Source: an uncultured Anaerolineaceae bacterium (GTDB lineage: Bacteria > Chloroflexota > Limnocylindria > Limnocylindrales > CSP1-4). Taken from it: DNA of 64,000 nucleotides. Numbering within the stretch: position 1 is the first letter of the stretch; every line of letters starts with the position of its first letter. Positions 38,197 through 60,976 of the stretch are shown here, in pieces. The stretch is from positions 1,434-65,433 of the forward strand of contig CAZYTQ010000001.1 of assembly GCA_964650135.1 (NCBI GenBank), given 5' to 3'. The position numbers were made by a program, and so were the translations under genes. Below the pieces are notes generated by a model, which was not told the DNA's origin, did not search any database, and saw nothing but the letters and a program-made list of their open reading frames with translations.

Positions 38197-38994
38197 TCAC
38201 CGACGCAGCGACGGGACCTCGGCCTCGATGATGGGCCCCATCGACTGGAGCGCCTGGTGGGTCTCGCGGGTGAAGTCGTCCTCGGTCATCGAGGCGAGTC
38301 GCGCCTGGGGGACCTGGATGTGACGGGCCATCAGCTCCGCGGCCGCGTCGGCGTCACATGCCCGGGCCGCGTCGATGATCGCCGCGTGCTCCGCGACGGA
38401 CCGGTCGAGGCCGCCGCGCAGCAATGCCGACGGGCGCCGATACATGACCAGCTGGGCCATCAGCCGCCGATAGACGTCGAGCAGCTTGGAGTTGCCGGAC
38501 GCCACGATCCAGGCTTCGTGGAACGCGACGTTCGCGTCATAGAACCCCAGGAAGTCATCGACCGCGGCGCACTCCACCATGCGTGCCTGGGCGTGCGCGA
38601 ACGATTCGAACGCCTCCTCGCCCAGGATCGGCACCGCGAGCCGGACGGCGAGCATCTCCAGGGACTCACGCACCTGGTACGCCTCGAGGAAGTCCCGTCG
38701 AGTGAGCGTGCTCACGATCGCTCCGCGGCGGGGCGTGATGGTCACGAGGCCCTCGGCGGCGAGATCCCCGAGCGCCTCCCGGATGGGGCCTCGACTCACG
38801 CCCAGAGCGCCCGCGAGCGGCACCTCCTGGAGCACCGTGCCGGGCGCGATGCGGCTGGCCAGGATGCCGCCGCGGAGATGCTCGTACACGCGTTCCCGGA
38901 GCGTCTTGTTGTCGAAGCCGTCCACGGTCCGCCTTTCCATCTGCACGACAGCATCCCAAGGATATCCATCGTGGCGCGGTCTCGACGTGGCCAC
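38197..38994 (-). CDS. GntR-family (FadR/FCD-type) transcriptional regulator
   Basis: N-terminal winged HTH (LRERVYEHLRGGILASRIAPGTVLQEVPLAGALGVSRGPIREAL) and an FCD-like C-terminal domain. 4-nt overlap with the downstream PTE-like gene. The true start may be the internal Met at 38940. Confidence 0.8.
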   Translation of the reverse strand: MATSRPRHDGYPWDAVVQMERRTVDGFDNKTLRERVYEHLRGGILASRIAPGTVLQEVPLAGALGVSRGPIREALGDLAAEGLVTITPRRGAIVSTLTRRDFLEAYQVRESLEMLAVRLAVPILGEEAFESFAHAQARMVECAAVDDFLGFYDANVAFHEAWIVASGNSKLLDVYRRLMAQLVMYRRPSALLRGGLDRSVAEHAAIIDAARACDADAAAELMARHIQVPQARLASMTEDDFTRETHQALQSMGPIIEAEVPSLRR

Positions 38995-39006
38995 GGCGCC
39001 GCGACT

Positions 39007-39019
39007 TGTTGACTGTCAA
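39007..39019. promoter_or_regulatory. Perfect 13-bp palindrome GTTGAC-T-GTCAAC in the divergent gntR-like/amidohydrolase intergenic region; candidate GntR operator
   Basis: Read from the sequence. Fits the GntR-family operator pattern (GT-N-AC containing palindrome) and lies 25 nt upstream of the ATG at 39044. Confidence 0.45.
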
Positions 39020-39043
39020 CACTGCCCCGCGCATACTACATCG

Positions 39044-39781
39044 ATGGTGCTCGACAGCCACATGCACGTGGGCGACTTCCCGTACTTCGGGGTGGCCATC
39101 GACCGCGATGGGCTGGTGGCCACGATGCGCGAGCACGGGGTCGACACCGGCATGGTGTTCCATCCCGATAACCAGCTGGTCCGCGACATCATCGGCCGCA
39201 CGCCGGGTCTGTACGGACTGGTGTGGGTGAACCCGCGCGAGCCGGGCGCAGCGGCTTCGGTGGCCCGGCTCCTCGATGAGCCGGGGTCGCGATTCCGGGG
39301 CGTCAAGATGCACCCGCTGCTCGACGGATACCACCCGGACGACCCGATGGTCCATCCGGTCATGGAGGTCCTTCGCGAGCGACAGCTGCCGGCCCTCATC
39401 CACTGCGGTCACCCCATCTTCTCGCTGCCGTGGAGCATCGAGGAGCTCATCCGCCGCTTCCAGGACGTGCCCGTGATCCTGGGTCACATGGGACATGGCA
39501 ACATCGTCTACATCAACGCCTCGATCGATGTCGCGGCCCGCAACCCGCGGGTGTACCTGGAGACCTCCGGCATGCCGATGCATTCCAAGATCCGCGAGGC
39601 GGTCGAGCGCGCCGGTCCCGAGCGTGTCCTGTACGGGTCGGACGCCCCCTTCCATCACCTGACGGTGGAGCTCGCGAAGGTGCGCGTGAGCGGTCTGCCG
39701 GATCCGATCACGGACGCGGTCCTCGGCCAGAACGCCCAACGGTTGTTCTTTGGCTCGACCGCCCCCGACGTGGTCGCATGA
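39044..39781 (+). CDS. Amidohydrolase-2 family (TIM-barrel metal-dependent hydrolase) protein
   Basis: N-terminal DSHMHVGD (HxH metal site). ~245 aa. GHMGHGN and DAPFHH later in the sequence. Confidence 0.65.
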   Translation: MVLDSHMHVGDFPYFGVAIDRDGLVATMREHGVDTGMVFHPDNQLVRDIIGRTPGLYGLVWVNPREPGAAASVARLLDEPGSRFRGVKMHPLLDGYHPDDPMVHPVMEVLRERQLPALIHCGHPIFSLPWSIEELIRRFQDVPVILGHMGHGNIVYINASIDVAARNPRVYLETSGMPMHSKIREAVERAGPERVLYGSDAPFHHLTVELAKVRVSGLPDPITDAVLGQNAQRLFFGSTAPDVVA

Positions 39782-39911
39782 AGGGTCCCTCCCGGGCCGC
39801 ACCCGCGGATCCCCGAGCCGAGGACGGCCCACACTGAGCGCGCCACATTCGAACGTGGAGGGCAAGCCGCCGTCGGCGGACACCCGACCAGCAATGAGGA
39901 GGTTCTCGTCC

Positions 39912-40976
39912 ATGTCGGAACGAACGATGCGACGCGGGGTCCGCGTCTGGTCCGTCGGCCTGACGGCCGCGTTGCTGGCCGGGTCCGCGGTGCCTGTGCT
40001 CGCACAGGATGCGACCACACCGCCCATCACCACGATCGCCTACATCTCGCCCGAGGCGGGCACCGACTTCGGCTGGAACCAGCAGGGGCTGGCGGGTGCG
40101 GAGGCTGCCGCCGCGAGCATCGGCGCCGTGCTCATCAAGGCCGATGGCTCGGGCTATGACGACCCGGCACCCATCCTCAACCAGCTCCGGGAGGATGGTG
40201 CCCAGTTCATCATCGCCCAGGCGAGCGGCTACACGACCACGGCCGCCCAGTTCGCGCGTGACAACGGCATCCCGTCGATCGTGTGGGATCAGCCGGACGA
40301 GACCACGGCTGGCCTGGTCCAGGCGTTCGAGACCAACAGCCAGGAGGGCGGCTACCTCGCGGGCGTGCTCGCGGCGTTGACCAGCACGACCGGCACCGTG
40401 GGCATCGTCATCTCCGCGGATGACGTGAACTGGCACAAGCAGGCAGGCGGCTTCGCGGCCGGTGCCAAGGCCACCAACCCGGACATCCAGATCCTCCAGG
40501 CCCAGATCGGGCCCGCCGGCTATGGCGACGCGGCAGGTGGCAAGTCCACCACCGAGGCGATCATCGCGGGTGGCGCGGACGTCATCTTCGGCATGGGCGA
40601 CGGCTCGTCCTTCGGCATGCTCCAGGCGATCGAGACGGCCACCCCGCCGGCAGGCGCGGACAAGGTCTGGTTCATCGACGTGATCGGCGACAAGACCTCC
40701 ATCGACGCGCAGGGCGTCCTGCTCTCCTCGGTCGTGTGGGACTTCGCACCCGGATACATCCAGGCGCTCGCGGACGTGGCGGCCGGCACGTTCGGCAGCA
40801 CGGGCTACACGCTCGATGCGGCGAATGGGGGCATCAAGCTGCTCCAGACCGACAAGATCGGCGCGGATGCCTGGGCGGCCGTCGAAGCGGCCCAGGCCGG
40901 CATCGCCGACGGCACCATCACGGTCCCGCTCACGCCGACCCAGGCCGAGGTCGACGCGGTCGTCACCGGCCAGTAG
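39912..40976 (+). CDS. BMP-family (basic membrane protein/PnrA-like, nucleoside-type) ABC transporter substrate-binding protein
   Basis: GAGGAGG RBS 9 nt before the ATG. Signal peptide (VWSVGLTAALLAGSAVPVLAQ). IAYISPEAGTDFGWNQQG and composition fit BMP/PnrA SBPs. Confidence 0.75.
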   Translation: MSERTMRRGVRVWSVGLTAALLAGSAVPVLAQDATTPPITTIAYISPEAGTDFGWNQQGLAGAEAAAASIGAVLIKADGSGYDDPAPILNQLREDGAQFIIAQASGYTTTAAQFARDNGIPSIVWDQPDETTAGLVQAFETNSQEGGYLAGVLAALTSTTGTVGIVISADDVNWHKQAGGFAAGAKATNPDIQILQAQIGPAGYGDAAGGKSTTEAIIAGGADVIFGMGDGSSFGMLQAIETATPPAGADKVWFIDVIGDKTSIDAQGVLLSSVVWDFAPGYIQALADVAAGTFGSTGYTLDAANGGIKLLQTDKIGADAWAAVEAAQAGIADGTITVPLTPTQAEVDAVVTGQ

Positions 40977-41028
40977 TCCACCCCATGGGCGAGCGAGGAC
41001 CGTCACGCGCGTGGGCTCCTCGCTCGTC

Positions 41029-42681
41029 ATGACGCAGCCATCCGCGACCGCGGGGATCGAGATCCCCGCGGTCGAGCTGTCCGGTATCACCAAGGCGTTC
41101 CCCGGCGTCCTCGCCAACGACCACATCAGCCTTCGGGTGATGGGCGGGGAGGTCCTGTGCCTCCTGGGCGAGAACGGCGCCGGCAAGTCGACGCTCATGA
41201 GCATCCTCTCGGGTCTCTATCAGCCCGATGAGGGCACCATCCGGGTGCATGGCCGCGAGGTGCGCATCGACTCGCCACGGGCGGGTCGTGACCTGGGCAT
41301 CGGCATGGTCTATCAGCACCTGAGCCTCATCCCGACCCTGAGCGTCCTCGAGAACCTGATGCTCGGCTCGGAGCCGCGCATGGTCCTCGACGAGGCCGCT
41401 GCCCGCCGCCGGTTCGACGACCTCGCCGCGACGCTCGCCGTGCACATCGATCCGACGATCCGCGTCGGGGCGCTGGCGCTCGGCCAGCAGCAGTACGTGG
41501 AGATCATCAAGGCCCTCTGGAAAGGCTCACGGGTGCTCATCCTGGATGAGCCCACCTCGATGCTCACGCCCCAGGGCATCGAGGAGCTGCAGAAGGTGCT
41601 GCTGGGTCTCAAGGCTGCCGGGATGGCCATCATCTTCATCACCCACAAGCTCCACGAGGCCATCGCCATCGGCGATCGCGTGACGGTGCTCAAGACGGGT
41701 CGCGTGGTGGGCTCGCTCGGTCCTGCCGACATCGAGGGCGTGGACCCTGCCGTCATCCAGCGTCGCATCGTGGGCATCATGTTCGGTGACGACACCCCGG
41801 ACGTGGATGCCATCGCCGAGCTGCGCGAGGATCTCCAGGTCGCCACCGACGGAGCGGAGGCCGGCTCCGTCGCGCCAGCGGTCGACCGGCCGGTCGTGCT
41901 CGAGCTCGAGGGGGTCGCCGCCTCGGGTGGTCACGGCCAGCACAGCCTCGTCGACGCCACGTTCGAGCTGCGCGCGGGCGAGATCCTGGGCGTGGCAGGC
42001 ATGGACGGCAGCGGTCAGCACGCGCTCGCCGAGGTCATCGCGGGGCAGCGCCGGACGACCGCGGGCACGATCCGCCTCGAAGGTCGCCCCATCGAGGACG
42101 CGAACGTGGGTCGACGCCAACGCGCCGGGCTGCGCTATGTGACCGACGATCGTCTGGGCGAAGGCGTCGTGGGACGCTACCCGGTGAGCCTCAACCTCGT
42201 CCTCAAACGCATCGGGGACGCGCCCTTCTGGCGTCGGGGCACGCTCGACCGCGGCGCCATCGATGCGAACGCACGGGACCTGGTGGAACGGTTCGACATC
42301 CGCACGCCGAGCATCGACACCCACATCGGCAAGCTCAGCGGCGGCAACATCCAGAAGGCGCTGCTGGCCCGGGAGCTCTCGTTCGACCCACGGGTGGTGG
42401 TCTTCAACAAGCCCACGCACGGGCTCGATGTGCGGACCATCGGGGTGGTCCGGGAGCGCATCCGGGAGCTGGCTGCGCGTGGTGTCGGCATCATCGTCAT
42501 CTCCACCGACCTGGACGAGCTGCTCGACCTCTCCGAGCGCATCATCGTGCTGTCGCGCGGCCGGATCGTGGGCATCCTCGCCAACGGCCCGGACGCGGCG
42601 ACGCGGGTCGGCGAGCTGGTCATCGGTGCCCAGGCGGCGCCCCGTGGGGCTCCTGACACGCCACCGCGGGCCGCCGCGTGA
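41029..42681 (+). CDS. ABC transporter ATP-binding protein with two fused NBDs (BMP-family transporter ATPase)
   Basis: Walker A GENGAGKST, signature LSGGNIQK, two NBD repeats. Start at MTQPS (alternative GTG at 41011). Confidence 0.85.
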   Translation: MTQPSATAGIEIPAVELSGITKAFPGVLANDHISLRVMGGEVLCLLGENGAGKSTLMSILSGLYQPDEGTIRVHGREVRIDSPRAGRDLGIGMVYQHLSLIPTLSVLENLMLGSEPRMVLDEAAARRRFDDLAATLAVHIDPTIRVGALALGQQQYVEIIKALWKGSRVLILDEPTSMLTPQGIEELQKVLLGLKAAGMAIIFITHKLHEAIAIGDRVTVLKTGRVVGSLGPADIEGVDPAVIQRRIVGIMFGDDTPDVDAIAELREDLQVATDGAEAGSVAPAVDRPVVLELEGVAASGGHGQHSLVDATFELRAGEILGVAGMDGSGQHALAEVIAGQRRTTAGTIRLEGRPIEDANVGRRQRAGLRYVTDDRLGEGVVGRYPVSLNLVLKRIGDAPFWRRGTLDRGAIDANARDLVERFDIRTPSIDTHIGKLSGGNIQKALLARELSFDPRVVVFNKPTHGLDVRTIGVVRERIRELAARGVGIIVISTDLDELLDLSERIIVLSRGRIVGILANGPDAATRVGELVIGAQAAPRGAPDTPPRAAA

Positions 42682-43817
42682 CCACGACCACCGAGTCGAT
42701 CAGCGCCACGATCGTGCCCGAGGACGACGACGGCTCTCGCTGGCGGACGCTCCTTGGTCACCTGGCCACCTCGGTCGGACCCATCGTGCTCGCGTTCGTC
42801 GCGTCCGGGATCCTGCTGGCCATCATCGGTCGAGACCCCATCGCGTTCTATCGAGACATCCTGCAGGCCGGAGTGCTGCGGGCGTCGGGCCTCCAGGACA
42901 GCATCACACGCATGGCACCCGTGCTGCTGGTCGGTGCGGGTCTCGTGGTCGCCTTTCGCGGCAGCCTCTGGAACCTTGGTGTGGATGGCCAGTACCTGCT
43001 GGGCGCCGCGCTCGTGGCGGGCATCGGCCCGTGGCTCATGACGGTCGTCGCGTGGCCCATCGCGCTGGTGCTGCTGGCCATCATCGCCATCGGCGCGGGC
43101 GCCCTCTGGACCATCCCGCCGGCGGTCCTCAAGGCACGCTACGGGCTCAACGAGATCGTGACCACGCTCATGATGTCGTTCATCGGCGTGGCCATCGCGA
43201 ACATGCTCGTCAAGGGCCCATTCAAGGGCCCTCAGATGGTGCCCCAGACGGGCGTCATCCCACCCGAGCACATGTTGCCGAGCTTGTTCGGTACGAGCAT
43301 CGATGTGGGGGTCCCGTTGTCCCTGCTGGTCGTCCTCATCGTCCATATGGTGCTCACGAGGACCTCGTTCGGGGCCCGCCTGGACGTCCTGGGTGCCAGT
43401 CCGCGTGCCGCCATCCACCTGGGGATCGACGTGCCGCGCCTCATCGTCGTGGCATTCCTGCTCAGCGGCGGCCTCATCGGTCTGGCGGCCTTCGTGGACA
43501 TCGCGGGCGTGTTCGGGTTCATGCGTTCCGACTGGGATCCGGCGTACGGTCTCAAGGTGGTGCCGCTGGTGTTCCTCGCGCGCCTCAACGTGCTGGCCAT
43601 GATCCCGCTGGCACTGTTCTTCGGCATCCTGTCCATCGGCGGCGACTACGCCACGCGGCGGGCCGACCTGCCGAGCGACTTCCTGCTCGTGTTCATGGGT
43701 CTCATGTTCCTGTTCATGGTCGTGACCCAGTACCTCACGAACGCGCGGCCGAGCCGTCCCTCGCTCCGACGGACCCGCGGGGTCGCATCCGCGGTCGCCC
43801 CCGGGGATGCGGCATGA
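42678..43817 (+). CDS. ABC transporter permease (BMP-family, YufP-like)
   Basis: ATGA overlap. Multi-TM protein. Confidence 0.8.
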   Translation: MTTTTESISATIVPEDDDGSRWRTLLGHLATSVGPIVLAFVASGILLAIIGRDPIAFYRDILQAGVLRASGLQDSITRMAPVLLVGAGLVVAFRGSLWNLGVDGQYLLGAALVAGIGPWLMTVVAWPIALVLLAIIAIGAGALWTIPPAVLKARYGLNEIVTTLMMSFIGVAIANMLVKGPFKGPQMVPQTGVIPPEHMLPSLFGTSIDVGVPLSLLVVLIVHMVLTRTSFGARLDVLGASPRAAIHLGIDVPRLIVVAFLLSGGLIGLAAFVDIAGVFGFMRSDWDPAYGLKVVPLVFLARLNVLAMIPLALFFGILSIGGDYATRRADLPSDFLLVFMGLMFLFMVVTQYLTNARPSRPSLRRTRGVASAVAPGDAA

Positions 43818-44749
43818 GCGACCTCCTCACGCCCACGTTCCTGACGGCCCTGCTGGCGGCGGGCATCGTGGCCGGCGTGCCGCTGCTCTATGCCAGCCTC
43901 GGCGAGACCATCGCGGAGCGGTCCGGCGTGCTCAACGTCGGCCTCGAGGGCTTCATGATCTCGGGCGCGTTCGTCGCCTTCATGGTCACCCTCGCGACCG
44001 GTGAGCCCTGGCTGGGCTTCCTCGCTGGGGGCATCGCGGGGGCCCTGGTGTCGCTGGTGATGGTCGTGTTCTGTATCCGGATGGGCCTGGACCAGATCGT
44101 CGTGGGCATCGCGGTCATCCTGCTGGCCGAGGGCGCCACGAGCGTGATGCATCACATCTGGTACTCCGGGACCTATCCCAGGCTCCCGTCCGTGCCGGTG
44201 CTCAAGGTGCCGATCCTGTCCGAGGTCCCGATCCTCGGGGGGAGCCTGTTCAGCCAGCCGCTCATCGTGTATCTCGGCGTCGTGTTGGTGGCCGTCACGG
44301 CATGGGCCCTGCGACGGACCCGGATGGGTCTCGAGATCCGTGCGGCCGGTGAGCGACCGGACTCGCTGGACGCGGCGGGCGTCAGCGTGGTGCGCACGCG
44401 CACGCTCGCCGAGCTGATGTGCGGGTTCCTGGGCGGCATCGGGGGTGCCTACCTGTGCCTGGTGGGAGCCGGCACCTTCGTGCCCTTCGTGACCAATGGC
44501 ATGGGCTTCATCGCCATCGTCATCACGATGCTTGCGCGTGGTCGGCCGTGGTGGTCGGTCCTGGGTGGCCTGCTGTTCGGCATCTCGCTGTCGGCCGCGA
44601 CAGCGCTCCAGCTGGTGGGTATCCAGATCCCGCAGGACGTGGTGTTCATGCTGCCGTTCGTGTCGGTGATGGTGGTCCTGGTGCTCTTCGCTCGGGACGC
44701 GCGCCTGCCCTCGGCACTCGGCGTCCCGTATGTCCGGGGGGCCCGATGA
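43814..44749 (+). CDS. ABC transporter permease (BMP-family, YufQ-like)
   Basis: ATGA overlap. Multi-TM protein. Confidence 0.8.
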   Translation: MSDLLTPTFLTALLAAGIVAGVPLLYASLGETIAERSGVLNVGLEGFMISGAFVAFMVTLATGEPWLGFLAGGIAGALVSLVMVVFCIRMGLDQIVVGIAVILLAEGATSVMHHIWYSGTYPRLPSVPVLKVPILSEVPILGGSLFSQPLIVYLGVVLVAVTAWALRRTRMGLEIRAAGERPDSLDAAGVSVVRTRTLAELMCGFLGGIGGAYLCLVGAGTFVPFVTNGMGFIAIVITMLARGRPWWSVLGGLLFGISLSAATALQLVGIQIPQDVVFMLPFVSVMVVLVLFARDARLPSALGVPYVRGAR

Positions 44750-44819
44750 GGCGTCATCCCCGCCGAGTCGCCGGCTCGCGGCGGAGCGGCATCCGACCGA
44801 TCACCATGGAGGTGGACCG

Positions 44820-46915: not shown

Positions 46916-46937
46916 CGCCTGAGTCCTGGAGGCCCCG

Positions 46938-48499: not shown

Positions 48500-48580
48500 C
48501 CGGCCATCGGACCAGCGGCCTGACCGGCCTTCGGGTCGGGTCAGCGGCGTGACACGCCGCCATCGGGTCGACCCGGCGGG

Positions 48581-52139: not shown

Positions 52140-52541
52140 CTACGCCAGGGTCTCGATCTCCACGAGGAACCCGTCAGGGTCGCGGACGAAGAACCGACCA
52201 CCGCCCCACGGGGGTGACCAGGGCTCGCTCGCGAACGGCACGCCCCGAGCCGCCAGCTCGGTATGGACCGCATGGACGTCCGCCACACGCAGGACCAGCA
52301 CGGCCGACGGGTGAGCCGGGTCCGCGGGCGCGGTCATGACGTACCCGTCCAGATCCGACGCGGGATGTCCCTGCTCCGCGAGGCACAGACCCACGGGACC
52401 GTTCGAGAGGATCGCGAATGGCGGGTCGTCGAACCTCGCATCCAGGGTGAAGCCGAGGCCTTCCGTGTAGAAGGCCATGGACGCGCCAAAGTCCGACACC
52501 GCGAGGATGGGACCGCCGCTCAGGACTCGGAAGGAGGCCAT
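52140..52541 (-). CDS. VOC (glyoxalase/bleomycin-resistance) family protein
   Basis: ~133 aa. LAVSDFGASMAFYTEGLGF. Confidence 0.65.
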   Translation of the reverse strand: MASFRVLSGGPILAVSDFGASMAFYTEGLGFTLDARFDDPPFAILSNGPVGLCLAEQGHPASDLDGYVMTAPADPAHPSAVLVLRVADVHAVHTELAARGVPFASEPWSPPWGGGRFFVRDPDGFLVEIETLA

Positions 52542-54090: not shown

Positions 54091-55011
54091 CTAGCTGAGC
54101 GCCTTGCGCACCTTGACCAGCGACGCACCACGCTGTGAGCGCAGCGCGCCGACCTCTTCCTCGGTGTAGTCGAACAGGCCACCCTTGGTCTTCATGCCCA
54201 GGCGACCCCTCGCCACCAGGTCCCGGATGGTGGGGCTCACCTCGGACGCGTTCGACAGGTCCGGGTTGAGGTAGCCCGCCACGGCGGTGTAGATGTCCAT
54301 GCCCGCCATGTCCAGGAGGTGCATCGGCGGGATGACCGCGAGCTTGTAGCCGATGCCCCATTTGACGTTGAGGTCCAGCTCCTCGAGGTCCACGACGCCC
54401 TCGTCCACGAGCGCCAGGCACTCGCGCATGATCGCGTAGAGCACCCGGTTCTCGACGAACCCCGGGACCTCCTTCTTGAGCAGGCAGGGGAAGTAGCCCA
54501 CGTCCTTGATGACGGCGATGGTGTCGTCCACGGTGGACTGGCTCGTCTGCTCGCCGGGCACCACCTCGATCATGGGGATGAGGTGGGGCGGATTGGACCA
54601 GTGCATGACCACCACCCGCTCGGGGTGCTGGAGGTTCGCGGCGATCTTCGTGGCCGGGATGCCCGAGGTGTTGGACGCGAGGATGACCTCGGGTCCGACG
54701 TGCTGCTCGTACTCGGCGTAGACCTTCTGCTTGAGCTCGAGGTTCTCGGGGATCGCCTCGATCACGAGTTCGGCGCCCGCGAGCGCGGCCGAGACGCTGT
54801 CCGCGTAGCGCACGGAGCCGCCCTCGACGGTCGGGCTCTCCAGCCGGTCGAGCACGCCCCACGCCAGCTCATAGCCGGCCTTGGCGCGCTCCAGCGCCTC
54901 GGTGCTGGTGTCATAGAGCGCGACCTGATAGCCGGCACGCGCCATCACGGCGCCCATGCCGGGTCCCATCGTGCCGGTACCCATGATGGCGACGCTGCGA
55001 AACCTGGTCAT
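54091..55011 (-). CDS. 3-hydroxyacyl-CoA dehydrogenase family protein (NAD-binding)
   Basis: N-terminal Rossmann motif VAIMGTGTMG. SNTS active-site region. C-terminal dimerisation domain. Confidence 0.75.
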   Translation of the reverse strand: MTRFRSVAIMGTGTMGPGMGAVMARAGYQVALYDTSTEALERAKAGYELAWGVLDRLESPTVEGGSVRYADSVSAALAGAELVIEAIPENLELKQKVYAEYEQHVGPEVILASNTSGIPATKIAANLQHPERVVVMHWSNPPHLIPMIEVVPGEQTSQSTVDDTIAVIKDVGYFPCLLKKEVPGFVENRVLYAIMRECLALVDEGVVDLEELDLNVKWGIGYKLAVIPPMHLLDMAGMDIYTAVAGYLNPDLSNASEVSPTIRDLVARGRLGMKTKGGLFDYTEEEVGALRSQRGASLVKVRKALS

Positions 55012-57308
55012 CGTGACTCCTTCTCGAGCTCCTGGATCCGTCTCCAGACGCGTTCCGGTGTGAGTGGCAGGGCATGCATGGGCACGCCCGCATCCGCGAC
55101 CGCGGTGGCGAGCGCCGCGATGATGCCTGCGAAGGCGCCCTCGCCACAGCCCTTGGCGCCGAACGGCCCCGGCCCGTCGCCGTTCTCGACGATGACGCAG
55201 GTGGACCGCTCCGGCAGGTCCTGGGTGCTGGGGATGCGGTACTCCAGCAGGTCGTCGTTGGTCAGCAGCCCCTGCTCGAAGACCATCTCCTCGAACAATG
55301 CATTGCCGATGCCCTGCATCGTGGCCCCTTCGTCCTGTCGCTCCACGAGCTGGGGATTGATGGCGCGGCCGACATCCGCCACGGTGGCGGTGCGGGTGAC
55401 CTTCAGGGCACCCGTCGCGCGATCGAGCCGGACCTCGGCAGCGCCGATGCACACCTCCCAGAACACGGGCCCTTCGGCGTATGACCCCGTCCCCTCGGGA
55501 TGGACGCCCCCCTCACCGATGAGCTGGCCGCCCGACAGACCGAAGCGCCTCGCGATGAGCTCCGGGAACGAGCGTCGCTCATCGCCACACCACGCGGCAC
55601 CCTCGGCGAGCACGACATCGGCCTCCCGGCCCGGCCAGATCCGGCCGGCGATGGCGAGCAGGTCGTCGCGCACCTCCTGGGCGGCGCGCTGGACGGCCAG
55701 CCCGGCGAGCGTGGTGGAGCGGCTGGCACCGGTGGAGCGGTCGTAGGGCGTGAAGCGGGTGTCCGTGCCCATGCAGCGGACACGCTCGGCGTCCATGCCC
55801 AGGACCTCGGCGGCGATCTGGGCGAACGCCGTGCGCTGGCCCTGGCCCATCTCGGTGGAGCCGACCAGCACGATGGCCTCGCCATCCGCCTCCAGGCGCA
55901 CGACGGCACTGGACACCGGGTGTGCGCCGGCCGCGAGGAGGCCCACCGACAGGCCGCGGCCGATGTCGGGGTCCCGCGGGTCGTCCCAGCCGAGGGCAGC
56001 AGCGACCTTCTCGATGTCCCCGACGAGGTCCGCGTCGAGCGGCTTGCCGCCCGGTCGCACCTGCTCGCCCGGACGCAGCAGGTTGCGTCGTCGGACCTCG
56101 ACCGCGTCGATGCCGGCGCGTCGGGCCACCTCGTCCACCTGCATCTCGCCGACCCACTGGACATGCGAGGCGCCGAAGGCGCGGTATGAGCCCGATGGTG
56201 CGGTGTTGGTGTAGACGCACAGCGCATCCACGCGGACCCCCGACCATCGATACGGACCCGGTGCCGCATCCCCGCCCGTCGCGGTCACGCGCGGCCCGTT
56301 GTCGGCGTAGGCGCCCGTGTCGAAGGAGATGGTCGTGTCCCGCGCCAGCAGCCGACCGTGGGCGTCCGCGGCGGTGCGCATGCGGATCCGCGCACCATGA
56401 CGACGCGTCGTGACCATCGACTCCGACACCCGGTTGACGATGCGCACGGGACGTCCGGCCTTGCGTGCCAGGGCCACCGTGATGGGCTCCATCTTGGTGT
56501 ACGACTTGCTGCCGAACCCTCCGCCGAGATAGGGCACCACGATGCGCACCCTGCCCAGCGGCAGCTCGAACAGCGCCGCGATCTCCGCCCGCACCAGGAA
56601 CGGGTGCTGGCAGGTCGCCCACATGGTCACGCCGTCCGCGTCCCACTGGGCGATGACGCTGTGCGTCTCCATCGCGTACTGGTAGACGCCCGGGAACTCG
56701 TAGTCGCCCTCCACCACGATGGCAGCGTCTGCGAACAGCCCGTCCACCTCACCCCGCTCGAAGCCATAGCGATAGCACACGTTGCCGTCGCGCTCCGGGA
56801 GCGTGCCCAGGCCGTGGAACAGGCCGGGCCGCAGCGGCCCGTCATGGACCAGCGGCGCATCGGGTGCGAGCGCCTCCTCGATGGTGCCCACGATGGGCAG
56901 CTCGTCGTAGACCACCTCGATGGCCGCGACCGCAGCCTCGGCAGTGGCCTCGTCCTCGGCCGCGACCGCCGCCACGGGCTCGCCCGCGAACCGCACTCGG
57001 TCGATGGCCACGATGGGCCGGTCCTGGATGGCATGGCCCCAGTAGGGGTCGATGTCCAGGAGGTCGCCACCCGTGAGCACCGCCACCACGCCGGGCATCG
57101 CGAGTGCCGCGGACACGTCGACGGACACGATGCGTGCGTGCGGAGCAGGACTCCGGAGGACCTTGCCGTGGAGCATGCCCGGGACCTGCATGTCACCCAC
57201 GAAACGCGCCTCGCCACGCAGCTTCTCGGCAGCGTCCACGCGCCGCATGCTCCGCCCGACCTGGGGTGCGGGTGTACGGACGGGCCGGGCGGGCGCCTCG
57301 ATGGTCAT
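55008..57308 (-). CDS. Molybdopterin-binding large subunit of a xanthine dehydrogenase-family molybdenum hydroxylase (CoxL/aldehyde oxidase-like)
   Basis: 766 aa. GGGFGSK motif and overall layout of the aldehyde oxidase/xanthine dehydrogenase a/b hammerhead plus MoCo-binding domains. 4-nt overlap with the downstream gene. Confidence 0.85.
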   Translation of the reverse strand: MTIEAPARPVRTPAPQVGRSMRRVDAAEKLRGEARFVGDMQVPGMLHGKVLRSPAPHARIVSVDVSAALAMPGVVAVLTGGDLLDIDPYWGHAIQDRPIVAIDRVRFAGEPVAAVAAEDEATAEAAVAAIEVVYDELPIVGTIEEALAPDAPLVHDGPLRPGLFHGLGTLPERDGNVCYRYGFERGEVDGLFADAAIVVEGDYEFPGVYQYAMETHSVIAQWDADGVTMWATCQHPFLVRAEIAALFELPLGRVRIVVPYLGGGFGSKSYTKMEPITVALARKAGRPVRIVNRVSESMVTTRRHGARIRMRTAADAHGRLLARDTTISFDTGAYADNGPRVTATGGDAAPGPYRWSGVRVDALCVYTNTAPSGSYRAFGASHVQWVGEMQVDEVARRAGIDAVEVRRRNLLRPGEQVRPGGKPLDADLVGDIEKVAAALGWDDPRDPDIGRGLSVGLLAAGAHPVSSAVVRLEADGEAIVLVGSTEMGQGQRTAFAQIAAEVLGMDAERVRCMGTDTRFTPYDRSTGASRSTTLAGLAVQRAAQEVRDDLLAIAGRIWPGREADVVLAEGAAWCGDERRSFPELIARRFGLSGGQLIGEGGVHPEGTGSYAEGPVFWEVCIGAAEVRLDRATGALKVTRTATVADVGRAINPQLVERQDEGATMQGIGNALFEEMVFEQGLLTNDDLLEYRIPSTQDLPERSTCVIVENGDGPGPFGAKGCGEGAFAGIIAALATAVADAGVPMHALPLTPERVWRRIQELEKESR

Positions 57309-57311
57309 GGG

Positions 57312-57803
57312 TCAGACGCCCCCATGGACGCTGTCGCCCGCTTCCACGGGCACACCCGCGAGCTCGGCGGCAGCCGCGAGGATGCCCCGATATCCGGTAC
57401 AGCGACACAGGTTCCCCGACAGGCAGCGCTGCACGGCGTGCGCGTCGGTCAGGTCGCCGGCAGCGATGAGCGCATGGATGGTGAGCGCCATCCCAGGCGT
57501 GCAGAAGCCGCACTGGACGGCCGCGTGCCGCTCGAAGGCCTCAACGATGGCTGGCCACTCGTCGGTCTCACGCAGCCCTTCGATGGTCATGACCTCCCGG
57601 CCTTCGGCGTCCACCGCGAGCGTGGTACAGGCGCTGACGGGTGCGTCATCCACGAGCACCGTGCACGTGCCGCACACCTGGACGTCGCATGAGCGCTTGG
57701 CGCCCGTCAGGCCGAGGCGGTCCCGGAGCACATCCAGGAGCAGCTCCTGTGGCTCCACATCGATCCGGCGAGCCTGGCCGTTGACGACGCAGCGCAGGTC
57801 CAT
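57312..57803 (-). CDS. (2Fe-2S)-binding small subunit of the molybdenum hydroxylase (CoxS-like)
   Basis: Two Fe-S cysteine clusters (C-x4-C-G-x-C...C and QCGFCTPG / CRCTGY). Confidence 0.85.
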   Translation of the reverse strand: MDLRCVVNGQARRIDVEPQELLLDVLRDRLGLTGAKRSCDVQVCGTCTVLVDDAPVSACTTLAVDAEGREVMTIEGLRETDEWPAIVEAFERHAAVQCGFCTPGMALTIHALIAAGDLTDAHAVQRCLSGNLCRCTGYRGILAAAAELAGVPVEAGDSVHGGV

Positions 57804-58516
57804 CAGCTGGCCGTGGCCGTGCGCGAGCGCTCGACCCGCCGCGTCCAGGCGGCCCAGTAGTCGTCGAGGAAGGAGGGCTGGTACTTCTGTGGCCGCAGGA
57901 TCTCGGCGTCCACCCTGGGGATGGGCACGAACGGCCCCAGCGCGGCGGCCGTGACCTGGAACCGGATGGCGCGCTCGAGGGTCACGGCCGTGAGCACGGC
58001 CCAGCGGATGTCCTCACCCGCGATGACCACGCCGTGGTTCCGCAGGAGCGCCGCGCGGCGGTGGCCCAGCGCGGCGGCGACGGCTCGCCCCTGGCTGGCC
58101 TCGGTCACCAGCGCCGGACCCTCGTCGTAGATGCCGATCCCGTCGGTGAACAGGACCGCGTCGTGGGTCAGGAACTCGAGCCCGGCCGTGGTCGCGCCAA
58201 GGGCCGTGCCATAGACCGGATGGCCGTGGATGACCGAATCCACGTCCGGACGAGCGCGATACACCTCGGCATGCATCACCGACTCGAGATGCTGCTCGGG
58301 TGCCTCGAACGCGTGGTCGTCATCGAGGTCGAGCGCGATCACGTCCTCGGGCTCCACCTCGTCGAGACCCACGCCCTTGCGCTTGATCCAGATGGTCCGG
58401 GCACCCGGCTGTCGGGCGCTCACATGGCCGAGGGTGAGGTCGAGGTAGCCCTCGGACGCGATGACCCGGCAGGCGATGGCCACCGAGTGGCGAAGCTCGT
58501 CGATCGTGGGCATCAC
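57803..58516 (-). CDS. Class II aldolase/adducin-family protein
   Basis: ~237 aa. SVIHGHPVYGTALG and HGVV histidine motifs typical of the fuculose-phosphate-aldolase fold. Confidence 0.7.
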   Translation of the reverse strand: MMPTIDELRHSVAIACRVIASEGYLDLTLGHVSARQPGARTIWIKRKGVGLDEVEPEDVIALDLDDDHAFEAPEQHLESVMHAEVYRARPDVDSVIHGHPVYGTALGATTAGLEFLTHDAVLFTDGIGIYDEGPALVTEASQGRAVAAALGHRRAALLRNHGVVIAGEDIRWAVLTAVTLERAIRFQVTAAALGPFVPIPRVDAEILRPQKYQPSFLDDYWAAWTRRVERSRTATAS

Positions 58517-58902
58517 TGGTCACTGCGCCGTTCGGTCGGCGGATACTCCGGATGCGCGAACGCGAACACCATCACGACCGGTTCGTTGCCTATACTCACG
58601 ACCGCGTGCCAGACGCCGGCCGGGATGTAGAGCGCGGTGCCGGCCTCGTAGGGCACGCGATCGGCCTCCATCTGGAGGTGGCCGGTGCCGCTCACCACGT
58701 AGGCGAGCTCCTCGGTCTCGTGGCTCATGAGCGCCGTCGTCGTGCCGGGCGCGAAGCTGGAGACCCCGAACGCGGTGCCTGCGCCGACGCGGCTGCCGCT
58801 CAGCACGATGCGGCTCCAGCCGCCATCCGCCAGGGGGATGGGCTCGACCGAATGGATGGGGATCGCCGCCACGCCATCGGGGCGTGTCACCGCATCGGTC
58901 AT
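58513..58902 (-). CDS. Cupin-domain protein
   Basis: ~129 aa. HETEELAYVVSGTGHL...YIPAGVWH two-motif cupin pattern. Confidence 0.55.
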   Translation of the reverse strand: MTDAVTRPDGVAAIPIHSVEPIPLADGGWSRIVLSGSRVGAGTAFGVSSFAPGTTTALMSHETEELAYVVSGTGHLQMEADRVPYEAGTALYIPAGVWHAVVSIGNEPVVMVFAFAHPEYPPTERRSDQ

Positions 58903-58910
58903 GACCCCGG

Positions 58911-59918
58911 TCACACGTCCCACTGGCCATCGCGGACGATGTAGCCGCTGCCAGCGCCGCCTTCGATGATCTCGAGGGTGGCTCCCCGGACCACGCCATC
59001 GAGGTGGAGCCGGCACGAGTTCTGGCCGCCGGGATAGGCGTTCCGGTTGTCGCCCATCGCGAAGTGGACATTGCCGATGCGACCCTTCTCGGACGGGGAG
59101 CCGAGCGGCGAGATGGCGCTGGTGCCGAAGGCGAACTCGGCCACGATGTCCACGTTGGGCACGCCCTCGATGACCCGCGCCAGCTCCTTCGCGTCGCGCT
59201 CGCCCTCGATCTTCACGACACGGCCGTCCTTGACGTGCCAGTAGATGGGGGAGCTGACCACATCGACGCCGATGCCCAGCATGTTGCCGGTCACGGCGAT
59301 GACACCGTTGGTCGCGTTCTCCACCGAGGCGTAGGCCACCTCTCCCCAAAGCGGCAGGGGACCCATCATCCAGCCACGCTGGCGGATGGGTGTGACCTGC
59401 AGCGGGGGCCGCTCCTCGATGGAGACCGTGACGTCCGTCCCCTCGGGGGTCCAGACACGGCACTTCCGGACACCCTCGAGCTTCTTCATGGCCGCGACGG
59501 CCCGCTCGGTCGAGTCGAGGATGTCCTGGACCTTGATGTCCCACTCGCCCATGCCGCCCTCGACCGAGGCGATCTTGACGTTGTTGGCGCAGGACTCACG
59601 GACCGCGTTGACATGGGCGAAGCGATTGGCCCACTCGAGGTTGGTCATGATGATGATCTCGTCCGCGGCGAGCATCGCGTCATGCAGGTTCTTGGGTGGC
59701 GCCATCGGGAACAGCGTGTCACCGAGGCAACGTGCCACCTGGGTCTCGTTGTTCATGATCACGGGCCACGCGCCCTTCTCGGCGGCGACCTCCGCGACGA
59801 CACGGGCGATGGCCGCGTGCTCGTCGTCCGTGATGATGGTCACCACGTCGCCCTGCTCCACCGTGAAGCAGGTGTTCACGATCAGCTCCGCGTGCTCGCG
59901 GACCTTGCCCTCGTTCAC
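58911..59918 (-). CDS. Peptidase-M29 (aminopeptidase T)-fold protein, NicX-like
   Basis: N-terminal LIVNTCFTVEQGDVVTIITD resembles the M29 N-terminus. ~335 aa. This fold family includes 2,5-dihydroxypyridine dioxygenase. Confidence 0.45.
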   Translation of the reverse strand: MNEGKVREHAELIVNTCFTVEQGDVVTIITDDEHAAIARVVAEVAAEKGAWPVIMNNETQVARCLGDTLFPMAPPKNLHDAMLAADEIIIMTNLEWANRFAHVNAVRESCANNVKIASVEGGMGEWDIKVQDILDSTERAVAAMKKLEGVRKCRVWTPEGTDVTVSIEERPPLQVTPIRQRGWMMGPLPLWGEVAYASVENATNGVIAVTGNMLGIGVDVVSSPIYWHVKDGRVVKIEGERDAKELARVIEGVPNVDIVAEFAFGTSAISPLGSPSEKGRIGNVHFAMGDNRNAYPGGQNSCRLHLDGVVRGATLEIIEGGAGSGYIVRDGQWDV

Positions 59919-60976
59919 GGTCGGGTCACCTCCACTGTCGCCGCGTCGGACCCTCGCAGGGCCGGCAGCACATCGCGCGCGAACCGCTCGACCTGCCCGA
60001 ACTGGTCGAGCGAGCCGAAGCGGCAGATGAAGTGGTCGACGCCCGCCTCCGCGAACGTCCGGAACCAGCTGATGATCTGCTCCGGGGAGCCCACCGGCCC
60101 CCAGTTGTCGAGACGTGTCGCCTTGGACAGCTCCGGGTAGTACTGGCTGATGTACTCGCCGAACGCGGTCCGCGCAGCCTCCTCAGAATCCCCGATGTTG
60201 AGCGTCACCTGATAGCTCACGGTCAGGCGCCTGGCGTCATCGCCCGTCTCCCTGGCCACCTCGTCGAGATAGCCCAGCTGCTCGACCAGCTCCTCCGGAT
60301 GCTGTGCCCGGCAGCAGGTCATCCAGCCCTCGCCGTAGCGCAGGATGCGCCGGCACGCATTCTTCATCGTGCGCACCATCTTCTCGTCGGCGGCATCGGT
60401 GACCAGACGCGGGTTGGACACGATCCAGAAGGGCGGGGGCTGCTGGATGGGCATCAGGGGCCCCATCTCGGTGCCTGAGTAGAAGCTGATGTCCGTGTAG
60501 TCGTACTGGGCCCCGTGGTGGGTGACGGTTCCCGTGGTCCACAGCTGGCGCACGATGTCGAGGCCTTCCTCGAAGATCGAGAAGCGCTTGTCGAAGTGGA
60601 GGCCAAGGGCGGCGAACTCGCGCTTCACCCCCTCCTCGGGGTTGCCGGCGCAGGGCCCGAAGATGGTCCGGCCGCCCGACAGCACATCGAGGGTCGCCCA
60701 CTCGAGCGCGAGGTACAGCGGGTTGCGTGGCGACGTGACGATGCACGCCGTCCCCAGCTTGACGCGCGAGGTGCGCTGCGAGAGCGCGGAGAGCAACGCC
60801 ATCGATTCGTAGCGGGGCTTGGAGAACAGTGAATCCCCGACCCACAGCGAATCGAACCCCAGACCCTCCACCGTCTGCGCCAGGTCGAGCAGCTCCGGGA
60901 TGCCATAGCCGGGCGCGATGAGCGGCTCCCGGTTGTTCAGGTTGACGCCGAAGCCCAGGGCGCTGGATGCCGTCAC
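59915..60976 (-). CDS. LLM-class (luciferase-like) flavin/F420-dependent oxidoreductase
   Basis: FGVNLNN...GFDSLWVGDSLF and TIM-barrel LLM layout. 4-nt overlap with the downstream gene. Confidence 0.7.
   Translation of the reverse strand: MTASSALGFGVNLNNREPLIAPGYGIPELLDLAQTVEGLGFDSLWVGDSLFSKPRYESMALLSALSQRTSRVKLGTACIVTSPRNPLYLALEWATLDVLSGGRTIFGPCAGNPEEGVKREFAALGLHFDKRFSIFEEGLDIVRQLWTTGTVTHHGAQYDYTDISFYSGTEMGPLMPIQQPPPFWIVSNPRLVTDAADEKMVRTMKNACRRILRYGEGWMTCCRAQHPEELVEQLGYLDEVARETGDDARRLTVSYQVTLNIGDSEEAARTAFGEYISQYYPELSKATRLDNWGPVGSPEQIISWFRTFAEAGVDHFICRFGSLDQFGQVERFARDVLPALRGSDAATVEVTRP

Follow-up and report, generated by a model that had tools for sequence, protein, structure and literature searches.

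The stretch of DNA analysed in this work (the window, 64,000 nucleotides of contig CAZYTQ010000001.1 from an uncultured Anaerolineaceae bacterium of the Chloroflexota) carries a gene cluster that a first-pass annotation, made from the letters alone, had placed at 38197-60976 and described as a candidate catabolic island for an N-containing cyclic compound. The GC content is ~70% across the whole 64-kb window, and a plain listing of open reading frames (ORFs) produced 110 candidates of 100 aa or more within 28 kb, mostly spurious frames. Because of this base composition, the genes were called by scoring reading frames and the GC content of third codon positions (GC3) and were subsequently checked with Pfam and NCBIfam, which yielded a clean gene model without overlapping frames. 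The Pfam scan left out about nine small called genes in 8163-25673; the tblastn searches described below covered the whole window. All the families named by the first-pass annotation were recovered at 38197-60976 with Pfam and NCBIfam, and the ends of this interval coincide exactly with the stop of a GntR gene and the start of an LLM gene. However, its gene list had omitted an SDR gene (52554-53288) and a VOC gene (52140-52541), and had passed over the fact that the FAD subunit of a molybdenum (Mo) hydroxylase is encoded in another operon than its partners.

Organization and conservation of the cluster

The cluster is made of three transcription units. Unit 1, on the minus strand, consists of a GntR/FCD transcriptional regulator (38197-38946, with the Pfam GntR and FCD domains) and of a PTE-family gene (37043-38200) whose start overlaps the end of the regulator gene by 4 nt. 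Unit 2 (39044-48062), on the plus strand and divergent from unit 1, encodes an Amidohydro_2 protein, a Bmp-type substrate-binding protein (SBP), the ATPase and the two permeases of an ABC transporter, an Aminotran_5 enzyme, the FAD subunit of the Mo-hydroxylase and an M20 protein. Unit 3 comprises 13 genes on the minus strand, from 60976 down to 48581, starting with LLM, an M29-like protein, a cupin, a class II aldolase-fold protein (AldII) and the 2Fe-2S and Mo subunits of the hydroxylase, and continuing with a 3HCDH-type dehydrogenase, an MBL-fold lactonase, the SDR, the VOC protein (VOC1), a second Aminotran_5 enzyme, a secreted HAD protein and, as the last gene, a Zn-dependent alcohol dehydrogenase (Zn-ADH). 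At most junctions of unit 3 the start and stop codons overlap or abut.

Homologues of the M29-like protein number 1323 in the database, the majority of them in metagenome-assembled genomes (MAGs) of Chloroflexota, Limnocylindrales and Armatimonadota, and are annotated as 'aminopeptidase T' and carry Pfam PF02073 and PF26233 ('NicX'). A scan restricted to one genome per species returned 270 relatives, the closest being 95% identical, and the best 80 of these 270 are all from MAGs, belonging to Chloroflexota, Thermoleophilia, Gaiellales, Solirubrobacterales, Acidimicrobiia and a few Bacillota and Armatimonadota. Synteny was examined by tblastn of all the window's proteins against 85 related loci, which revealed a near-invariant main run, with all genes in the same orientation: GntR, LLM, M29-like, cupin, AldII, the small (MoS) and large (MoL) subunits of the Mo-hydroxylase, the 3HCDH-type dehydrogenase, the lactonase, the SDR, VOC and Zn-ADH. 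The divergent unit, in the opposite orientation, contains the medium, FAD-binding subunit (MoM), an aminotransferase, the permeases, the ATPase, Bmp and, as an optional member, Amidohydro_2. The main run is kept across uncultured Chloroflexota and Actinomycetota, and in most Actinomycetota loci the GntR gene is found immediately upstream of the LLM operon. The gene-neighbourhood comparison, which had been suggested as a check of the island, finds the same order in more than 50 loci from two phyla and, together with the three units and their overlapping or abutting codons, indicates that the grouping is not due to chance.

The units also share a sequence element. A perfect palindrome, TGTTGACTGTCAACA, is found at 39007-39021, in the promoter region of the divergent GntR and Amidohydro_2 genes, and a close variant, TGTCGACTGTTGACA, at 61027-61041, 51 bp upstream of the LLM start, where it also faces a divergent VOC-fold gene (VOC2); both are regarded as candidate operators. 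Even with up to 3 mismatches tolerated, the 15-bp palindrome does not recur anywhere else in the 64 kb, so that two sites stand against 0.48 expected by chance, and TGTYGAC-N-GTYRACA is present in the window only at these two positions. The degenerate form TGTYGACNGTYRACA occurs in 34 of the 85 loci and, when one mismatch is allowed, the palindrome lies upstream of LLM in 24/24 Chloroflexota-type loci with enough upstream sequence, at a distance of mostly 56-92 bp (with extremes of 18 and 162 bp). In the Actinomycetota loci carrying GntR before LLM, the matches are located upstream of GntR instead. The palindrome thus appears to bear the signature of a FadR/GntR-type operator, and the cluster is predicted to constitute a co-regulated regulon under the control of GntR. 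With its three units, the shared palindrome and the synteny, the earlier description of the locus as a dedicated, co-regulated catabolic island for an N-heterocycle has held up well.

Predicted import and early steps of vitamin B6 degradation

According to the first-pass annotation, the gene set matched no textbook pathway and resembled a hybrid of nicotinate-type and purine-type modules. This notion had to be abandoned for the upper half of the island, which appears to correspond to the known vitamin B6 degradation pathway I, as judged from the best solved homologues (three of them from Mesorhizobium loti), from three B6-specific NCBIfam equivalog models whose cut-offs are passed, and from the name 4-pyridoxolactonase carried by the database homologues of the lactonase at JGI and NCBI. 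M. loti B6-degradation enzymes are the best match of five proteins, namely the lactonase, the SDR, the 3HCDH-type dehydrogenase and the two aminotransferase paralogues. On these grounds, the substrate of the island would be vitamin B6, and the route would lead from pyridoxamine to pyridoxal, 4-pyridoxolactone, 4-pyridoxate, 5-formyl-3-hydroxy-2-methylpyridine-4-carboxylate (FHMPC) and, finally, 3-hydroxy-2-methylpyridine-4,5-dicarboxylate (HMPDC).

The lactonase (53314-54060, minus strand) contains an HFHFDH motif of the HxHxDH type and matches PDB entry 3aj3 (4-pyridoxolactonase) with 261 bits (E 9e-77), versus 104 bits for the AiiA lactonases; its score against NF047925 (367.5 bits) is above the cut-off of 325. 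Similarly, the SDR (52554-53288, minus strand), in which the YxxxK motif is present, reaches 379.6 bits against NF047923 'pyridoxal 4-dehydrogenase, SDR-type' (cut-off 325), and the Bmp/PnrA-family protein (39894-40976, plus strand), which has a signal peptide, passes NF047927 'putative B6 ABC transporter SBP' with 402.8 bits for a cut-off of 400, and is predicted to bind a B6 vitamer. The importer would be completed by an ATPase with two ABC_tran domains (41011-42681; Pfam) and by two permeases (42678-43817 and 43814-44749), recognized by Pfam BPD_transp_2 and synteny, all three on the plus strand. Two Mo-type loci (L089/L090, 1501-2955) carry an NCS1 (Transp_cyt_pur) permease in place of the Bmp-ABC importer; in these, pyridoxal dehydrogenase is absent and a PNPOx_N-domain gene is found ~8 kb away.

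The 3HCDH-type dehydrogenase (54091-55011, minus strand) matches 4om8 with 328 bits (E 4e-97), the next match being at 143 bits, and its top NCBIfam model is NF042925 (410 bits, below the cut-off of 500). It is denoted here as the FHMPC dehydrogenase homologue (FHDH) and, from its sequence, would be the last enzyme in common with the canonical pathway. The first aminotransferase paralogue (44730-46019, plus strand, with an uncertain start within 44730-44886) matches 2z9u-2z9x with 385 bits (E 5e-114 for 2z9u); these entries we take, from reference 17 of PMC3538738, to be the M. loti pyridoxamine-pyruvate aminotransferase (PPAT). NF046070 is the top model for both this protein and the second paralogue (50921-52096, minus strand), with 453 and 416 bits, under the cut-off of 600. 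The two PPAT paralogues share ~50% identity and are encoded one per operon in the window and in its closest relatives, while most other loci have one.

These comparisons do not support the purine-type reading of the Bmp protein and of the class V aminotransferases, since the match to PucG amounts to 142 bits versus 385 and the Bmp protein passes a B6 model. More broadly, we give next to no probability to a purine/nucleoside- or nicotinate-type hybrid island, composed of a Bmp nucleoside transporter, a xanthine or nicotinate dehydrogenase and a NicX dioxygenase. What speaks for it is a resemblance at the level of families only, with the NicX fold as the top Foldseek match and PF26233 matching the family of the M29-like protein. 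It is contradicted by the B6-specific equivalogs passed by the SBP, the dehydrogenase and the lactonase, by PucG, XdhA and PucD models that score far under their cut-offs, by the lack of NicC/D/E/F, uricase or allantoinase homologues in the window, and by the non-conservation of the Fe ligands and substrate residues of NicX, considered below.

Canonical and Mo-type lower modules

Beyond this point, the canonical pathway involves four more enzymes, for which PMC3538738 gives the references: a GMC 4-pyridoxate dehydrogenase, an HMPDC decarboxylase of class II aldolase fold, the flavin oxygenase MHPCO and an alpha/beta-hydrolase, AAMS hydrolase. No FAD_binding_3, alpha/beta-hydrolase or GMC protein was detected with Pfam among the scanned called genes of the cluster and its flanks, and tblastn with the canonical MHPCO, AA_synth, alpha/beta-hydrolase, PBP and GMC proteins found no homologue in the window. 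The same five queries gave nothing in the 85 Mo-type loci (1.27 Mb), except for the MHPCO query in one locus, at 27% identity.

Examination of the neighbourhoods of lactonase homologues revealed three loci from cultured Microbacteriaceae (L086-L088, including Rathayibacter soli and Ruicaihuangia caeni) of canonical composition, with Bmp-ABC, aminotransferase, M20, lactonase, SDR, GMC or Zn-ADH plus VOC, FAD_binding_3, AA_synth, aldolase II, 3HCDH, alpha/beta-hydrolase and PBP; three further neighbourhoods show the composition of the window. The identity of the window's proteins to the copies in canonical clusters is 60% for the lactonase, 63% for the SDR, 51-59% for FHDH, 51-53% for the aminotransferases, 49% for VOC1 (52140-52541, minus strand, Pfam PF00903) and 40-55% for the transporter parts (50-55% for the ATPase). 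The M20-family amidohydrolase (46938-48062, plus strand; Pfam, NCBIfam) is 53% identical to the M20 of the Rathayibacter soli B6 cluster, and the Zn-ADH (48581-49615, minus strand; Pfam) is 58% identical to that of the Ruicaihuangia canonical cluster and alternates with a GMC oxidase in other canonical clusters. This Zn-ADH is a candidate for the oxidation of pyridoxine to pyridoxal or of 4-pyridoxate to FHMPC. The aldolase-fold protein is only 33% identical to its canonical counterpart and, for this reason, has to be counted within the exchanged part of the pathway.

Both types of cluster are alike up to FHDH and then carry mutually exclusive lower modules: HMPDC decarboxylase, MHPCO, AAMS hydrolase, AA_synth and PBP in the canonical one, and seven genes in the window, encoding LLM, the M29-fold protein, the cupin, the divergent aldolase-fold protein and the S, L and M subunits of the Mo-hydroxylase. 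In comparison with M. loti MAFF303099 (mlr6785-mlr6807), the window shares PPAT, the SDR pyridoxal 4-dehydrogenase, 4-pyridoxolactonase, FHMPC dehydrogenase and a class II aldolase-fold protein and, in comparison with the actinobacterial canonical clusters, additionally Bmp-ABC, M20, VOC and Zn-ADH, at 40-63% identity, whereas it lacks the GMC pyridoxine 4-oxidase/4-pyridoxate dehydrogenase, MHPCO and AAMS hydrolase. The regulator also differs, being of the GntR/FCD type in the window and of the IclR type in the Microbacteriaceae canonical clusters. In L086-L088, AA_synth (PF06684) and PBP (PF01161) always adjoin MHPCO and the hydrolase; to our knowledge, neither is part of the eight-enzyme M. 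loti scheme.

Gene content was counted in the 57 related loci whose sequence extends 9 kb or more beyond the M29-like gene on its downstream side. The cupin is found in 56, AldII, MoS and LLM in 55 each, MoL in 51 and MoM in 40, and the B6 genes in 52 (FHDH), 45 (lactonase), 45 (SDR), 40 (VOC) and 34 (Zn-ADH). The related clusters are compact, with no room for an unrecognized gene of the size of MHPCO. The smallest versions are reduced to GntR, the lower module and FHDH, and four minimal loci (L004, L036, L079 and L080) have PPAT, FHDH and the lower module without lactonase or pyridoxal dehydrogenase. In two other loci (L002/L003), the lower module occurs without FHDH or any B6 upper gene and is followed by an FrhB/FdhB-like Fe-S flavoprotein and by subunits of a 2-oxoacid:ferredoxin oxidoreductase, a variant that hints at another substrate or another electron route. 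In L002 (8133-18841) and L003, genes for CoxG, an enoyl-CoA hydratase, an acyl-CoA dehydrogenase, a cyclase and a CoA-transferase precede the lower module. In L022 (2667-14633), a pair of M29-like and cupin genes (73% and 57% identical to the window copies) lies between two different Mo-hydroxylase gene sets, in a locus that also holds two transposase fragments, CoxG and a UbiD-family decarboxylase. The association of this pair with Mo-hydroxylases seems to extend beyond B6 clusters.

These loci raise the question of whether two unrelated pathways might simply lie side by side, that is, a canonical B6 upper pathway with its MHPCO and AAMS hydrolase encoded elsewhere, and an adjacent module for a hydroxypyridine or aromatic acid. 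The presence of the lower module, or of the M29-like/cupin pair, without B6 genes in L002/L003 and L022 would fit such a situation, as would the fact that the data are loci rather than whole genomes. Little probability is nevertheless left to it, because a 4-nt overlap couples the translation of FHDH to that of MoL, FHDH comes after MoL in 52 of the 57 loci, the gene order is kept across phyla, the candidate operator is shared by both transcription units, and canonical and Mo-type lower modules were never found together in any locus seen. A departure from the known pathway after HMPDC is what the comparative genomics supports.

The three subunits of the Mo-hydroxylase, that is, L (MoCo; 55008-57308, minus strand), S (2x[2Fe-2S]; 57312-57803, minus strand, Fer2_2 and Fer2) and M (FAD; 46016-46915, FAD_binding_5 and CO_deh_flav_C), all have diagnostic Pfam domains, and the gene for M stands apart from those for L and S, in the plus-strand operon. 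The L subunit, in which the GGGFG motif is present, matches in PDB the alpha subunit of 4-hydroxybenzoyl-CoA reductase (4-HBCR; 336 bits), quinoline 2-oxidoreductase (Qor; 284), CO dehydrogenase (CODH; 273), 6-hydroxypseudooxynicotine dehydrogenase (Kdh; 253) and, at 183-190 bits, PaoC and AOX. It remains under all NCBIfam equivalog cut-offs (4-HBCR, 490 vs 995 bits; XdhA, 441 vs 780; CODH, 294 vs 991), and the AYRCSFR loop of CODH was not found in it. Hence, the molybdenum hydroxylase announced by the first-pass annotation is indeed present, and neither NCBIfam, PDB nor motif comparison makes it a CODH or xanthine dehydrogenase (XDH) equivalog; by its sequence it would fall outside the characterized subfamilies XDH, form I CODH, 4-HBCR and PaoABC. 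A role as CO dehydrogenase, as xanthine dehydrogenase or in purine catabolism was rejected on the NCBIfam cut-offs and motifs.

A useful precedent is HpdA from Ensifer adhaerens HP1, which carries out the Mo-dependent conversion of 3-hydroxypyridine to 2,5-dihydroxypyridine (2,5-DHP) (bioRxiv 10.1101/2020.01.08.898148). This four-component 3-hydroxypyridine dehydrogenase belongs to the same superfamily, its cluster also has a GntR regulator and an ABC transporter, and a separate SRPBCC/CoxG subunit exists both in the HpdA system and in some relatives of the window's cluster. Yet, the 3hpd cluster goes on with the standard maleamate pathway (hpdBCDE), which is absent from the window's cluster, and the HpdA substrate is 3-hydroxypyridine, whereas that proposed here would be a methyl- and carboxy-substituted 3-hydroxypyridine derived from B6. 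In the B6 ring, C6 is the only unsubstituted carbon and, being alpha to N, it is the classical target of a Mo-hydroxylase.

A different role for the Mo enzyme within a B6 cluster was also weighed: that of an aldehyde oxidoreductase (a 'pyridoxal oxidase' or an FHMPC oxidase), in which case the POD-like aldolase-fold Fe(II) enzyme, the cupin or an LLM monooxygenase would open the ring directly, with no preceding hydroxylation at C6. Aldehyde oxidoreductases belong to the same family, and in animals Mo aldehyde oxidases act as pyridoxal oxidase. In addition, the minimal loci without lactonase and pyridoxal dehydrogenase would need another maker of 4-pyridoxate, and AldII is nearest to a true Fe(II) dioxygenase (PMC11841055). 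We consider this role unlikely, however, since the SDR, the lactonase and FHDH of the window would make it redundant, the L subunit scores higher against the ring-acting 4-HBCR, Qor and Kdh (253-336 bits) than against PaoC/AOX (183-190), and the B6 ring offers exactly one classical site for Mo-hydroxylation.

The M29-like protein (58911-59918, minus strand) scores 42.7 bits against Pfam M29 (PF02073; threshold 27), although the match covers residues 5-60 only, and its family is also matched by PF26233 'NicX'. A single-sequence search against PDB (phmmer) found no match even at E <=1, M29 enzymes included, and a profile search gave NicX at E 0.014 and PepS at E 0.15. The predicted structure (AlphaFold2, 16 sequences; pLDDT 81.6) has NicX (7cn3) as its top Foldseek match in PDB (TM 0.74/0.71, 15% identity), followed by the longer M29 aminopeptidases PepS, AmpS and AmpT, with TM 0.65-0.71 for the M29 fold. 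NicX from Pseudomonas putida KT2440 has the same compact fold (335 aa here vs 350 aa) and is also encoded in an N-heterocycle cluster with a Mo-hydroxylase; homologues of NicC, NicD, NicE and NicF are absent from the window. The M29 aminopeptidases (AmpS, AmpT, PepS, Lmo1603) have the fold and the full metal and catalytic hexad in common with the protein (PMC4661694), their length being ~370-415 aa vs 335 aa.

In NicX, Fe(II) is bound by His265, Ser302, His318 and Asp320, and the substrate is positioned by His105 and Glu177-His189 (PMC7910607). Low-scoring HMMER alignments place E193 and E261 of the window's protein at NicX Ser192 and His265, and its E261, H305 and D307 at PepS E319, H381 and D383, while the position of NicX Ser302 would be occupied by the invariant H285, a mapping derived from motif spacing. 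As a result, only the H-x-D pair (H305/D307) is kept among the NicX Fe ligands, and at NicX positions Ser192, His265 and Ser302 the M29-like family has Glu, Glu and His, which is the M29 peptidase state. In the same kind of low-scoring alignment, NicX Glu177 and His189 are replaced by V175 and L190; an invariant H102, in a loop of low pLDDT, could correspond to NicX His105. The hexad E193, E261, H285, Y295, H305 and D307 is invariant in 80-82 of 82 sequences, the exceptions being two truncated sequences with gaps, and the span from its first E to its D is 114 residues, versus 113 in Lmo1603.

Accordingly, the NicX fold noted by the first-pass annotation stands, with a size to match, but the reading as a dioxygenase is weakened by these M29 residues, and, of the observations it had listed as contrary to its proposal, the intact M29 peptidase site was found, while a CODH-type Mo enzyme and an absence of co-regulation were not. 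With the full M29 hexad present and two of the four NicX iron ligands replaced, the protein is more likely a dinuclear amidohydrolase with the NicX architecture and the ancestral peptidase site than a ring-cleaving dioxygenase, and the fixation of its gene in a catabolic operon suggests a small-molecule amide, rather than peptides, as its substrate. It can be read as an analogue of AAMS hydrolase or of the nic deformylase/amidase, and an iron oxygenase function is still conceivable. After this mapping of residues, less weight was given to a role in cleaving a 2,5-DHP-type ring as a dioxygenase of the NicX type.

The aldolase-fold protein (57803-58516, minus strand; Pfam) retains the His triad H97/H99/H161, as well as H82, and the His equivalent to His104 of the pyruvic oxime dioxygenases (POD) is conserved. 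Its best PDB matches are PODs (8il8/8iqa/8ix6, 103-106 bits), ahead of NovR (82) and Mlr6791 (2z7b, 60). PODs are Fe(II) dioxygenases on an aldolase scaffold, and members of their clade match one another with E below 1e-60, a clade outside which the window's protein falls (PMC11841055). NovR/CloR, PhtC, Mlr6791 and POD are all class II aldolase-fold enzymes acting on non-sugar substrates, as is proposed here, and the cluster context calls for exactly the HMPDC-type decarboxylation of the HMPDC decarboxylase Mlr6791. From its sequence, the protein could be either a decarboxylase or an Fe(II) oxygenase. When the monocupin (58513-58914, minus strand; Pfam Cupin_2) is aligned with OxdC, H65, E69 and H103 fall on three of the four canonical metal-ligand positions and are at least 95% conserved in 79 sequences, the first His being variable. 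Cupin Fe(II) dioxygenases, 3-hydroxyanthranilate dioxygenase among them, work with a 2-His-1-Glu site of this type, and the window's cupin is a candidate ring-cleaving dioxygenase.

The LLM oxidoreductase (59915-60976, minus strand; Pfam PF00296) is the first gene of the minus-strand operon and resembles most closely F420-dependent subfamilies: TIGR03619 (117 bits) and other F420 LLM families are among its top NCBIfam models, all under their cut-offs, and its best PDB match is the F420-dependent glucose-6-phosphate dehydrogenase (66 bits). A role as an analogue of 4-pyridoxate dehydrogenase was downgraded because Zn-ADH is common to the canonical clusters, where it alternates with GMC, and LLM occurs only with the exchanged lower module.

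The properties of LLM and of the M29-fold protein bring in a reductive-hydrolytic opening of the ring, as in the nicotinate fermentation of Eubacterium barkeri, in which the Mo enzyme would generate a 2-pyridone, LLM would reduce the ring with F420H2, the M29-fold protein would open the lactam, and the cupin and aldolase-fold proteins would serve as decarboxylase or isomerase. The M29 hexad indeed points to a hydrolase, LLM resembles F420-dependent subfamilies, the cluster is mostly found in F420-producing phyla, and L002/L003 join the module to FrhB-like and 2-oxoacid:ferredoxin oxidoreductase genes. Against this, ring or ene reductions of such a kind are not established for the LLM family, the host lineages, from soil and water, seem to be aerobic, and the conserved 2-His-1-Glu cupin suits an oxygenase, so that this type of opening seems to us quite unlikely.

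A putative Mo-dependent route and the accessory genes

Bacterial B6 catabolism is usually taken as solved, with two pathways in a few Proteobacteria and Actinobacteria, in each of which a flavin oxygenase opens the ring. Our preferred explanation is that the locus, in a Chloroflexota bacterium of high GC content, is a B6 regulon whose lower pathway has been displaced, which we believe to be probably correct. A more far-reaching proposal, to which we assign even chances of being right or wrong, is that it represents a third, previously undescribed bacterial route for the destruction of the B6 ring: after HMPDC, the Mo-hydroxylase would activate C6, and non-flavin metalloenzymes together with an F420-type LLM would dismantle the ring. 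This module would displace that of MHPCO and AAMS hydrolase in most Chloroflexota and in many non-Microbacteriaceae Actinomycetota of soil and water, and its minimal form would be a dedicated 4-pyridoxate/HMPDC unit. What seems new is the lower module, which is without a characterized counterpart in the searchable literature; for the upper pathway, which had been described before, current annotation pipelines would supply part of the names. A literature search, incomplete in coverage and thus amounting to absence of evidence only, yielded nothing relevant on a Mo-dependent or NicX-linked B6 pathway, and a 2026 marine B6-catabolite preprint describes no such cluster.

In this proposal, and judging from homology, the Bmp-type ABC system would import B6 vitamers, the two PPAT paralogues would convert pyridoxamine to pyridoxal, the SDR pyridoxal 4-dehydrogenase and 4-pyridoxolactonase would lead to 4-pyridoxate, and FHDH would oxidize the 5'-carbon onward to HMPDC. 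Zn-ADH may provide one alcohol oxidation (pyridoxine to pyridoxal or 4-pyridoxate to FHMPC), which is done elsewhere by GMC oxidases. The individual assignments in the lower pathway are tentative, each being rather doubtful when taken singly. The Mo-hydroxylase would hydroxylate C6 of HMPDC or HMPC, giving a 3,6-dihydroxy (2,5-DHP/gentisate-like) ring; the aldolase-fold enzyme would remove a carboxylate ortho to a ring hydroxyl; an Fe(II) enzyme, most likely the 2-His-1-Glu cupin or, alternatively, the POD-like aldolase-fold protein, would open the ring; the M29-fold dinuclear hydrolase would cleave an N-acetyl amide or imide to yield acetate and ammonia; and LLM, probably F420-linked, would carry out a redox reaction on an intermediate that is partly reduced or whose ring is already open.

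Several points weigh against this interpretation. None of the lower-module proteins has a characterized orthologue for its step, as judged from the sequence comparisons, and the alignments that map the NicX and M29 residues are low-scoring. The cupin, the POD-like aldolase-fold protein or LLM could each be the O2-dependent step, and a hydrolytic opening is possible, and the Mo enzyme could act as an aldehyde oxidoreductase on pyridoxal or FHMPC and not hydroxylate the ring. Both PPAT paralogues and FHDH fall under their equivalog cut-offs, so their specificities may differ, and, as L002/L003 lack B6 upper genes, the module may accept other hydroxypyridine carboxylates. Finally, the comparison covered loci, not whole genomes, and a canonical MHPCO may sit elsewhere in the genome.

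The locus and its 270 or more relatives suggest that B6 and 4-pyridoxate, an excreted B6 catabolite, are recycled in a Mo-dependent manner by abundant, mostly uncultured Chloroflexota and Actinomycetota of soil and freshwater. If this were true, new activities would be gained for four poorly characterized families, including an M29 'peptidase' in small-molecule catabolism, and genes that at present carry the annotations aminopeptidase T, xanthine dehydrogenase family protein, cupin and aldolase could be labelled by function. It would also provide a marker set for vitamin turnover in metagenomes and a candidate B6- or 4-pyridoxate-responsive GntR repressor-operator pair.

Unit 2 opens with a small Amidohydro_2 TIM-barrel hydrolase or decarboxylase (39044-39781, plus strand; Pfam PF04909, 110 bits), with an N-terminal HxH (DSHMH motif) and a weak match to the decarboxylase LigW; its gene is syntenic beside GntR/Bmp in Thermoleophilia loci, at 59-66% identity. 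The conservation check in the related loci identifies the PTE, HAD and VOC2 genes as lineage-specific accessories. The PTE-family (phosphotriesterase-like lactonase) gene (37043-38200, minus strand; Pfam PF02126, 218 bits) has no tblastn counterpart in the 85 related loci, and that of the HAD hydrolase (49722-50732, minus strand; Pfam HAD) has one in only one other locus. The latter was described as secreted in the first-pass annotation, and a clear Sec signal peptide, MRRTIAPVLVAATLLVGAVAPALA, confirms it; with its DIDGT motif, it is possibly a B6-phosphate phosphatase. VOC2 (61166-61621, plus strand; Pfam) is divergent from the LLM operon, and the same divergent arrangement with LLM was seen in L007, L009-L011, L013 and L023.

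Some ORFs and genes outside these families also deserve mention. The convergent M20 and Zn-ADH genes are 520 bp apart, and in between lies an ORF of ~145 aa (48065-48499, plus strand) with hydrophobic N- and C-terminal segments and no family assignment, whose 3' end overlaps a 24-bp tandem duplication (48483-48534; 2.2 copies, 96% match). Past the cluster, a strongly coding ORF of more than 729 aa (61809-64000, plus strand) runs off the end of the window; it has no Pfam match at E <=0.001. Upstream, positions 1-37000 of the window contain several LacI-regulated clusters for the utilization of sugars or sugar acids, unrelated to the B6 island, with SBP_bac_1 and Peripla_BP_4 transporters, SDRs, SMP-30 gluconolactonases, an enolase-superfamily protein, a family III CoA-transferase and an adenylosuccinate-lyase-like protein. 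One of these LacI-regulated sugar-type clusters includes a well-coding ORF of 476 aa (22237-23667, plus strand) without Pfam match, which adjoins a second PTE-family gene (23664-24740).

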